Source of the DNA: Lama guanicoe | Lineage: Eukaryota | Reading direction: 5' to 3' | Assembly: GCA_013239625.1 (NCBI GenBank) | Contig: MU053365.1 | Span: 1,894,115-1,958,114 of the forward strand | DNA length: 64,000 nucleotides | The notes under the pieces: generated by a model | Seen by the model: the letters and a program-made list of their open reading frames with translations, nothing else | What the model was told of the DNA's origin: nothing | Database searches by the model: none | Program-made: the position numbers and the translations under genes | Part shown: piece by piece, positions 14,558 to 33,814 of the stretch | How positions within the stretch are numbered: position 1 is the stretch's first letter | Layout: the number at the start of each line of letters is the position of its first letter

Positions 14558-14582
14558 TTTTAATGGGGGAAGGTAACTAGGT

Positions 14583-14625
<43 letters not shown>

Positions 14626-14709
14626 TTTTAATGGAGGGACAGGGGATTGAACCCAGGACCTCATGCATGCTAAGCACGTGCTCTACCACTGAGCTACACC
14701 CTCCCCCCC
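14558..14709 (-). mobile_element. tRNA-Ala-derived SINE, camelid Vic-1 type
   Basis: The reverse complement reads GGGGAGGGTGTAGCTCAGTGGTAGAGCACGTGCTTAGCATGCATGAGGTCCTGGGTTCAATCCCC (A and B boxes), then (AAAT)n and an AAACCTAGTTACCTTCCCCC tail. Confidence 0.88.
14582..14630. repeat. (TTTA)n microsatellite within the SINE tail
   Basis: Directly visible. Confidence 0.95.
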
Positions 14710-21750: not shown

Positions 21751-21838
21751 GTCTGGGGCAAAAACTTTACCATTGTACCTTTACAGTTTGTAATGTCTGG
21801 GGCAAAAACTTTACCATTGTACCTTTACAGTTTGTAAT
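21751..21838. repeat. Perfect 44-bp tandem duplication
   Basis: GTCTGGGGCAAAAACTTTACCATTGTACCTTTACAGTTTGTAAT occurs twice. Confidence 0.97.
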
Positions 21839-22429
21839 GTATTTCCCATCTCATTTCATTCTGATGGAACATAATTTCCTTTTGATACTGTACATTTGTG
21901 CCCCTTGTCCTGTTCAGTCGCACTATACAGACAGGTCCCTTTAACTTTGTTTTTCTCTTGGTTTCAAACAATGCCAATAAACTCAATTTATGGCATAATA
22001 TGACATTATTACCAAGTGATCATCATACCTACCTCACTTGGAATTATTTGAAGTGACAAGCTGATTGTCAGAAGAGGGACTAAAGGTTTTTTAATCATTT
22101 TACAAACCAAATAAATAGGAAGCAAGACTCTTTACTTGACACCAGAAGAATAGAGTCTATAGCAAATGAATGTTTTTAGCCTTCTCCATTTCATTAAAGG
22201 CTAAATGACAAACTGGGACCAATAAAAAACTATTTATTTTCTTTCATTGTGTATACATTTTGATTTAATTCCTTGAAGAATTCAGATGTATCTCATTTCC
22301 AAATTAAATGCAGTTTATATATTTGAATCCCTGCCATGAAGACAACTGTAGGTTTCCTAAGTGTATAAATCCCCAGTGCTTCACTCCAAAGGCAAGAATA
22401 GTAAGACGGTAGATTGAATATACACATCC

Positions 22430-32025: not shown

Positions 32026-32153
32026 TAAAGAAAGCCCCTTTTCTCTGTCCAAGCCATCTTTGCCTCCTCATCACCCCCTCTCCCTCTACTAAAGAAAGCC
32101 CCTTTTCTCTGTCCAAGTCATCTTTGCCTCCTCATCACCCCCTCTCCCTCTAC
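32026..32153. repeat. 64-bp tandem duplication (1 mismatch) upstream of the CXorf51-like promoter
   Basis: Units 32026-32089 and 32090-32153. Confidence 0.95.
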
Positions 32154-32276
32154 AGAGGTGTCAGAAATTGTACTTTGAAATGTCTGAGCCATATCTTGGC
32201 CCCTCCAGCAAACTTTGCCACACACAGAGGTGTCATCAGCAGTACTTTGTGATCGCTAAGCAACCCCCTTAGCCAC

Positions 32277-32400
32277 TATTGGCTAGGGGAGTGCCTTGCT
32301 GACCAATCAAAGCTGAAGGGTGTGGTCCCCTCATTGTCCTGGGGAAGGGTATATATAGCACGGTCAGGAAGCCTGGGCTAGTTCACCGGGAGGCTTCAAT
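32277..32400 (+). promoter_or_regulatory. Core promoter of the CXorf51-like gene
   Basis: Reverse CCAAT (ATTGG ~32278), CCAAT at 32303-32307, GT box GGGTGTGG at 32318-32325 and TATATATA at 32350-32357, about 50 bp before the ATG. Confidence 0.7.
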
Positions 32401-32523
32401 ATGTCTAAGGTGTCCAAGAAGCTACCACAGCCTAATACAGATATGGACCAACCAACCTCAAGTTCCAGACAGCGGAAGAAGTTGAATGTTCCTGATCAAC
32501 CCAGGACCAGAAGTGGCGGCAAG
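32401..32523 (+). CDS. CXorf51: Coding exon 1 of a CXorf51-like (SPANX/CYPT-related) small basic testis protein
   Basis: ATG at 32401 (A at -3). 41 codons, MSKVSKKLPQPNTDMDQPTSSSRQRKKLNVPDQPRTRSGGK, end at a strong phase-0 donor AAG|GTAAGG. The spliced junction RSGGK|ALKTTRK resembles human CXorf51 RSGVKGLKTTRK as recalled. Exact orthology is unverified. Confidence 0.85.
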
Positions 32524-32727
32524 GTAAGGTGACCCTATTCAAGCTACTCTTTTCTTCATTGACCCATTGAGCCCTCCTCCCCCAAGAATCTTACCCTTCC
32601 TTGCCTGGCACAAACCCCCTCCTCAGCTCTGACCCCTTCTTATGAAGCCATCCTTTCCATCAATATCCTATCTTTTCCCCCCTAAACCAGTGTCCTTTTA
32701 AACTCACTCTGTTGTCCTCCTTTCTAG

Positions 32728-32961
32728 GCATTGAAGACAACCAGGAAGACTAAAAAAAACCTTCAAAGGACTTTGAGTAAAAAAGCCTCTGAAAAAACTA
32801 CCAACCCTATAAGAAAGTCTAAGAAGGCTAAAGGGCCAACACTATTCGGCCATTATCACAGGCTGAATGAGACATTAAGTGAAAATCAAAATGAGCTGCA
32901 GCAGAAGCAAGAAGTAGTGGAGAAGCCCACTACTTCAACTGGTGACCTGGGCTGCCAGTAA
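32728..32961 (+). CDS. CXorf51: Coding exon 2 of the CXorf51-like gene (total protein 118 aa)
   Basis: The 204-bp pyrimidine-rich intron (32524-32727) has a branch-like CTCAC (~32703) and acceptor TTTCTAG|GCA. The exon reads ALKTTRKTKKNLQRTLSKKASEKTTNPIRKSKKAKGPTLFGHYHRLNE...DLGCQ* with no disablements. KKAKGPTLFGHYHRL resembles CXorf51 KKARGPILRGRYHRL. Confidence 0.85.
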   Translation, partial: ALKTTRKTKKNLQRTLSKKASEKTTNPIRKSKKAKGPTLFGHYHRLNETLSENQNELQQKQEVVEKPTTSTGDLGCQ

Positions 32962-33071
32962 CTTCAGAGAGAGGCTAGAGACCTCAGAAATATCTGCAAA
33001 GTCTCTGAAGTCTGAGAAATGACCAAATGTGTACATACTGAATTTTACAGCTACAGGGTACACTGATGGTA

Positions 33072-33115
33072 ATTAAATAAAAACCAACTTGTGAAAATTT
33101 CTGTGTGCTTCTGAG
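33072..33115 (+). terminator. Polyadenylation signal of the CXorf51-like gene
   Basis: Overlapping ATTAAA (33072-33077) and AATAAA (33076-33081) about 110 nt after the stop, followed by a GT-rich TTCTGTGTGCTT downstream element. Confidence 0.7.
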
Positions 33116-33814
33116 AGTTCTCTCGTGGTGGGAGCAGGGAAGGAAGGGAAGAAGAAAGGGTGTGAGGAGGGAGGGACGCTGGGTCCTGCAGAGTGGGGGC
33201 AAGACTGGCAGAATCACAGTTAACCAGATAGTGGGGAAAAGGAGTGGGTCAGGACAGAGTGCTGCGGACAAATTTCCTGCTTAACACTTGAACCTACTGG
33301 GAAGATGGAAAAGGGCTTGGCGTTTCTATTTTTGGGGTGGGGCGCAGGAGGAGCACGCTGTCAAAGTGTAGATTGCCAGAACCTATATGTTTAAGGTGTG
33401 TGGGTGGCAGTGGCATCCCACGAAACAGGGAAATAAATGACTCCCAGGCCACCTACCTCATAATGGTGTTTGTTACATGCCACCTGATGACATCAACAAC
33501 TGACGATCCTCCCAAGGGCCAAAAACCTCACCCTACTAAAAGTTACTGAAAGCACCCTAAGGACTGAAATAATGGTGACTGGAAGCCACAAATCCAACAC
33601 TAATTAGCCCACTTGCTACAGAAACTTAGGGTCGAGCACTGGCTTCCCAAGGGCAGGGCAATGGGAGCAGTCTGCTTTGCAGGCAATAAAGGGGGATATT
33701 GTCTACAAAGAATTCTAAAACAGCAGTCTCCCCTGCAGAGATCTTTATCTTCATTCTTTCCAAAGTTGTTTTTCTCTCTAAAGAGGATATCCTTTTAAGT
33801 GGTTTCATTGAAGT

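Follow-up and report, generated by a model that had tools for sequence, protein, structure and literature searches.

SPANX and Cypt are small, X-linked genes expressed in spermatids, and it was in their company that a sequence-only reading of a stretch of the guanaco genome (Lama guanicoe) placed the gene considered here, which it described as an intact, two-exon, "CXorf51/SPANX-like" gene for a basic protein. A second described system is the boar and ram spermatid nuclear transition protein 4 (TP4), a small basic protein which Akama et al. (1999, FEBS Lett 442:189) reportedly obtained from late spermatid nuclei, with a stimulation of topoisomerase I also being reported. The human genes CXorf51A and CXorf51B belong to the same family as the guanaco gene and encode a basic, disordered, testis-expressed protein of 108 amino acids (aa); they map to Xq27.3 (PMC8481210), near FMR1 like the guanaco gene, and are present as two copies within the X palindrome P17 (PMC8327919; this and the other papers given by PMC number are cited from excerpts). 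The name TP4 is itself ambiguous, because rat TP4 (HMGB4L1), which belongs to the HMG-box proteins and has 66% identity to HMGB4 (PMC5036535), shares only that name with the family treated here; it was ruled out as a relative, given that the guanaco protein has no HMG-box match. The window, by which we mean the whole analyzed stretch of 64,000 nucleotides (nt) (C722:1,894,115-1,958,114 of a 2.05-Gb assembly), holds an intact camelid orthologue of CXorf51A, with two exons and a small, very basic, disordered protein product. The best overall explanation of the locus, to which we give a probability of roughly three in four, is that this orthologue is expressed in spermatids and encodes a putative accessory chromatin protein.

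Of the 118 residues of the spliced protein, 117 are identical in the alpaca RefSeq record XP_006213041.1, “uncharacterized protein CXorf51A”; the one difference, V in the guanaco protein for A at position 105, is allelic or species-level. Camelus CXorf51A (XP_006193284.1, XP_031302103.1, and KAB1252580.1) has the same length of 118 aa as the alpaca protein and is the same gene, with 110 of its 118 residues identical to those of the guanaco protein, and the 90% cluster of the 118-aa Camelus protein includes the alpaca record. The protein and profile searches proposed along with the sequence-only reading also led to the CXorf51 family. With exon 2 alone as the query against 5.8 billion proteins, seven matches were obtained at E ≤ 0.01 (from 42 candidates), all of them mammalian and all labelled PF27987.1, the best one being a 118-aa Camelus protein (E = 6.7e-37, 95% identity), and pig, bear, and cattle proteins being matched at E values from 7e-19 to 2e-18. 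As for disablements in the orthologues of sister species, the frame is open in alpaca and in three Camelus species, as it also is in pig and in ruminants. The gene is not a discovery, since it is already annotated in RefSeq under the name CXorf51A, that is, under the very name proposed, so that the present work has small value for annotation; both the gene and its family, a little-studied one, were known before.

A profile built from ten orthologues recovered 46 proteins at E ≤ 0.001 out of 3262 candidates, and all 46 carry the label PF27987.1, which is precomputed on the homologues. An exhaustive HMMER search of 1.84 billion representatives gave 61 proteins at E ≤ 0.001, 34 at E ≤ 1e-10, and 6 at E ≤ 1e-30, and orangutan CXorf51A falls within the family with E = 6.1e-18 against the profile. 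The family is small, and every named member comes from a eutherian mammal, the mouse member being Q9D9P0. Most are entered in databases either as CXorf51A(-like) or as “spermatid nuclear transition protein 4(-like)”, besides one mouse lemur member named “transition protein 3-like” and a few uninformative names (hypothetical, LOC-numbered, and one “histone H1.0-B-like”). In our own Pfam search, neither exon gave a match above the cut-off of any family, nor did the full-length alpaca protein or the annotated members P0011, P0006, and P0004, and since these annotated members also went unmatched, the Pfam copy appears to be without the PF27987 model.

Membership in the family is also evident from the features that its proteins have in common. 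The hallmark K-K-A-K/R-G-x-x-L-F-G-H-Y-H-R-L-N-E is complete in the guanaco protein, and K74, F81, G82, H83, and L87 recur in 90% or more of 37 aligned members, with Y84 being invariant; in the same alignment, the F-G-H-Y-H portion is replaced in the orangutan protein. The guanaco protein also has the basic N-terminal part followed by the acidic tail rich in Ser and Thr, and its gene has the two coding exons with a phase-0 intron after codon 41. In a maximum-likelihood tree of 44 family proteins, chosen among annotated members plus a few unnamed ones and rooted at the midpoint only, the guanaco protein groups with the pig protein of 117 aa and the ruminant proteins of 120 aa (support 97/94). 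A separate clade, here called B (95/92), contains the camel protein of 136 aa, the horse protein of 138 aa, and the pig proteins of 127 and 147 aa, together with proteins of rhinoceros, mouse lemur, colugo, and armadillo. The orangutan protein falls within the remaining grade with no fixed position, and the tree does not settle one-to-one orthology between the guanaco gene and human CXorf51A/B.

The guanaco genome, searched in six frames with the alpaca protein, contains four family loci, namely the window gene and three others, L002, L004, and L005, which share its exon 1 of 123 nt; the place of the intron and its acceptor were modelled in L002 and L005. The first of these, L002 (G000:C4372:360137-363466, minus strand), is an intact gene for a 136-aa protein of the long B type, has a 189-bp intron at the same codon and the same promoter blocks as the window gene, and its product differs from a Camelus “CXorf51A-like” protein at two to three residues. 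The second, L005 (G000:C722:291152-294355, minus strand), lies near 0.29 Mb on the scaffold of the window gene, on the opposite side of FMR1, and is a two-exon copy with an open spliced frame of 117 codons and a decayed hallmark, in which S-H-C-H-K-K-K-E-E replaces F-G-H-Y-H-R-L-N-E. The third, L004 (G000:C3057:6172-9393, minus strand), keeps the promoter blocks and exon 2, and it is probably a pseudogene because its exon 1, when read from its ATG, is out of frame with the basic stretch seen in other members. Of the compact unit of about 0.9 kb, with its GT-box/TATA promoter, the camelid genome thus has three or more copies with an open frame and one with a shifted frame.

The anatomy proposed for the window gene from its letters alone (Table 1) is present throughout: the CCAAT, GT-box, and TATA motifs, the ATG, the AATAAA, and the GT-rich element are all there, and so is the phase-0 GT-AG intron of 204 bp. 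The spliced frame runs uninterrupted for 118 codons (41 + 77) and encodes a protein with 19 K, 8 R, and 10 Q, in which K and R together make up 23% of the residues and the isoelectric point (pI) is 10.5, that of residues 1-85 being 11.5 and that of the last 33 residues (86-118) being 4.4. As had also been remarked, the gene is only partly visible in the track of open reading frames (ORFs), because the frame of exon 1 closes three codons inside the intron and exon 2, which has no ATG, is unlisted; the list of ATG-started ORFs shows exon 1 alone, as a 43-aa ORF at 32401-32532. That frame closure, taken with the end-to-end alignment, over the splice junction, of complete proteins of 115-120 aa that come from ten or more species, with the 98-99% matches of exon 1 and exon 2 taken separately, and with the CAAG/GTRAG junction found at the same codon in the window gene and in the modelled L002 and L005, makes it very improbable that the predicted splice is wrong and that the locus is untranscribed or used as a single exon, even if the lack of a Pfam match for the family, from a Pfam copy that appears to be without its model, could be read in that sense. 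When the window is divided into 2-kb bins, G+C content reaches its maximum, 0.462, in the bin of the gene and ranges from 0.320 to 0.440 in the other 31. In Logan/ENA contigs of other species, we also observed three sequences (P0023, P0024, and P0025) in which the intron is open in frame and from which gene callers derived read-through products of 162-177 aa that align in one piece to window positions 32401-32946.

The protein is lysine-rich and is predicted to be mostly disordered, with the N-terminal two thirds being basic and followed by an acidic tail of Gln, Ser, and Thr. AlphaFold2 with the 37-row alignment gave a mean predicted local distance difference test score of 61.5 and a predicted template modelling score of 0.15, and it predicts a single element, a helix that begins in the hallmark and spans residues 82-105. 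Among solved structures, none matched the profile at E ≤ 0.1, and the ESM Atlas gave no usable match. Human CXorf51A was found to be intrinsically disordered by nuclear magnetic resonance (NMR) (PMC8481210), in a structural paper whose excerpt regards the protein as uncharacterized, and yet the family carries the name of a boar spermatid transition protein.

The proposed mechanism would begin with the TATA/GT-box promoter driving post-pubertal transcription in spermatids; the protein would then enter the nucleus of the condensing spermatid, where its basic, lysine-rich, disordered part may bind DNA, and it could serve as an accessory transition protein in the change from histones to protamines, in the manner of the boar “transition protein 4”. 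Spermatid expression in the camelid, nuclear location, DNA binding, and any role in fertility are inferred, and the transition-protein role is suggested by the database name “transition protein 4-like” together with the title of the boar TP4 paper. The sequence-only reading had spoken of a sperm nuclear basic protein, which fits the “transition protein 4-like” part of the database names and also what has been reported of LOC781895, the cattle orthologue and bovine member of the clade of the window gene. LOC781895 is given a value of 693.9 in mature testis vs. 0.00 in immature testis and stands among the 15 most up-regulated genes in Table 1 of that source (PMC8614260). For human CXorf51, PMC8327919 speaks of a gene family with expression in testis, and PMC3627604 names it, beside SPANX, among the multi-mapping RNAs of round spermatids and sperm.

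An alternative reading accepts the expression in spermatids and places the protein outside chromatin, its basic region binding RNA or a cytoplasmic or perinuclear structure, as has been proposed for SPANX or Cypt. We consider this quite unlikely: a disordered protein with one predicted, amphipathic-looking helix is compatible with it, as is the automatic transfer by which the name “transition protein 4-like” came to these records, whereas the 23% of K and R, the pI of 10.5, and the family name suggest nucleic-acid binding, the title of the boar TP4 paper, known to us as a citation, places that protein in late spermatid nuclei, and no sequence similarity to SPANX was detected. Pfam includes models for SPAN-X and for transition proteins 1 and 2. 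With either exon or the full-length alpaca protein as the query, no Pfam family was matched at E up to 1 except FapA (E 0.15-0.25), a match far under its cut-off that we take as chance, and TNP1 and TNP2 were likewise unmatched at E up to 1. A match of VitD-bind_III on the bovine protein (20.9 bits vs. a cut-off of 27) is also taken as chance. Cypt, named for the cysteine-rich perinuclear theca, was ruled out because the guanaco protein has a single cysteine among its 118 residues. The interpretation offered from sequence alone is therefore partly supported: its CXorf51 part stood, and its SPANX and Cypt parts did not.

Several observations weigh against the chromatin reading and have to be set beside it. 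The link of the family to purified boar TP4, the name of which is carried by bovine, equine, oryx, and deer members, rests on NCBI and UniRef names, and only database names connect the boar and ram proteins to the window gene. Moreover, the B clade, with proteins of 136-138 aa, may be nearer to boar TP4 than the A group to which the window gene belongs, a suggestion of the tree that depends on the length of the boar protein. For CXorf51A, the NMR paper cites expression in prostate and T cells from the Human Protein Atlas (PMC8481210). In the excerpt of PMC8327919, deletion of a single CXorf51 copy is described as common in men and as having no association with azoospermia or oligozoospermia, and two control men were apparently without both copies. 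Finally, the gene is weakly constrained, exon 1 most of all: compared with L002, the window gene has an overall Nei-Gojobori ratio of nonsynonymous to synonymous substitution (dN/dS) of 0.67, which rises to 0.83 when exon 1 is taken separately and falls to 0.57 for exon 2, and in identity to L002, exon 1 does not surpass the intron (66% vs. 71%).

The last of these figures, together with the human deletions, raises the possibility that the window gene is an intact-looking but dispensable copy, drifting near-neutrally or becoming a pseudogene, whose open frame is a matter of recent history. The overall dN/dS points the same way, as do the frame-shifted exon 1 of L004 and the comparison of lamine with Camelus proteins, in which 8 of 118 residues have changed in the A copy vs. 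two to three of 136 in the B copy, a change about three to four times faster in the former; “fast-evolving”, the expression used beforehand of genes of this kind, describes it well. All the same, we hold this alternative to be unlikely, given that no damage is seen in the 118-codon frame, at either splice site, in the hallmark, or in the promoter blocks, that the orthologous frame is open from alpaca and Camelus to pig and ruminants, that exon 2 surpasses the intron in identity to L002 (79% vs. 71%) and has the lower dN/dS given above, and that mature cattle testis shows strong expression of the orthologue (PMC8614260). A spermatid-expressed CXorf51A orthologue with a putative accessory role in chromatin thus remains the reading we prefer.

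We also put forward, as a tentative and somewhat doubtful suggestion, that the TP4-type (perhaps also TP3-type) proteins of boar and ram have their wider eutherian form in the CXorf51 family, that this family split before the eutherian radiation into an A form of 115-120 aa, to which the window gene belongs, and a B form of 136-138 aa, and that the faster change of the A form in camelids would accord with adaptation driven by reproduction, in a sperm-chromatin protein of accessory function, more than with drift alone. Among papers containing both terms, no link between CXorf51 and transition proteins was found in titles or abstracts. For settling the function of CXorf51, the artiodactyl and camelid copies are useful because they keep the FGHYHRLNE hallmark, which is lost in the orangutan protein that was examined.

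Human FMR1 lies at Xq27.3. In the guanaco assembly, PF12235 (the FMR1/FXR1/FXR2 family) matches three loci, one of which is on C722 at 1.184-1.186 Mb, within a set of FMR1 exons (L008/L009) at G000:C722:1182689-1187590. The exon analyzed (C722:1,185,878-1,186,090) is 94-99% identical to FMR1 of many mammals, and among the best 120 of 1120 matches, every gene-named one is FMR1, with none being FXR1 or FXR2. The window gene, at C722:1,926,515-1,927,072, is on the same scaffold as this FMR1 locus and 0.74 Mb from it, and therefore, judged by synteny, it is X-linked and located in the equivalent of human Xq27.3, in agreement with the earlier remark that such genes are typically X-linked. As an indirect sign of the same linkage, the family member and FMR1 report a longest contig of equal size in nine other species. 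The guanaco window differs from the human palindrome in having one copy and no second arm: when 67 family proteins were compared with the 64-kb window by tblastn, the sole family match was at 32389-32958, all other matches had E ≥ 0.04, and neither a second copy nor a palindrome arm was found in it.

The region-by-region identity between the window gene and L002 indicates that what was duplicated is a compact gene, about 0.9 kb long, with a short leader and a proximal promoter that spans some 150 bp. In the 300 bp before the ATG, identity is 45% from -300 to -151 and 73% from -150 to -1, and the 3' untranslated region (UTR) belongs to the unit as well, being 71% identical to the same region of L002. 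According to the upstream alignment, the promoter blocks CTTTGTGAT, CCAC.A.TGGCT, GCTGA, GGGTGTGG, and TATATA are kept in all four loci; within the CCACTATTGGCT block, ATTGG is exact in the window copy and in L004, the other two loci departing from it. Transcription would start near 32380. Taken alone, three of the gene's motifs are common words in the 64 kb, where CCAAT occurs 60 times, TATATATA 32 times, and AATAAA 99 times. The full cAMP response element (CRE), TGACGTCA, has no occurrence in the window, and no CRE half-site was found within 32200-33200. Separately, a 64-bp unit is repeated in two tandem copies (98% identical) at 32026-32153, 248-375 bp upstream of the ATG, where it falls outside the promoter block common to the paralogues.

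Table 1. Features of the CXorf51A orthologue and its promoter, in window positions.
Feature	Position	Strand	Remarks
Conserved upstream block CTTTGTGAT	32245..32253	+	Marks the distal edge of promoter conservation; no variation among the three aligned loci, also in L004; twice in the window
Conserved block CCACTATTGGCT with inverted CCAAT (ATTGG at 32278)	32273..32284	+	CCAC.A.TGGCT in four of four loci
CCAAT motif	32303..32307	+	Peculiar to the window copy; CCAAA in L004, GCAAA in L002, CCTCA in L005
GT box GGGTGTGG	32318..32325	+	Sole occurrence in 64 kb; invariant in four of four paralogous promoters
TATA box TATATATA	32350..32357	+	44-51 nt 5' of the ATG; TATATA core in four of four loci
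Exon 1, coding part	32401..32523	+	41 codons from the ATG; donor AAG/GTAAGG directly after 32523
Intron	32524..32727	+	204 bp, GT...AG, phase 0; pyrimidine tract, then TAG
Exon 2, coding part	32728..32961	+	77 codons and TAA; hallmark ...KKAKGPTLFGHYHRLNETL... and acidic tail
3' UTR	32962..33107	+	AATAAA 33076-33081, GU-rich TGTGTG 33102-33107; cleavage site inferred

The gene had been described as isolated, and within the window it is, being the sole family copy and the sole recognizable coding sequence there. The 18 longest stop-to-stop frames of the window and the next 100 contained no Pfam family at E ≤ 0.01 or 0.001, a search that small exons would escape, apart from one stray match to Peptidase_M56 that is below its cut-off and is taken as chance. 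Rfam gave a single match in the window, tRNA-like, at 14633-14703 on the minus strand (46 bits against the Rfam tRNA model), which stands beside a (TTTA)n run at 14582-14628 and is probably the head of a tRNA-derived short interspersed element, not a tRNA gene. Elsewhere in the window, at 21751-21840, a 44-bp unit is present in two tandem copies that match at 100%.

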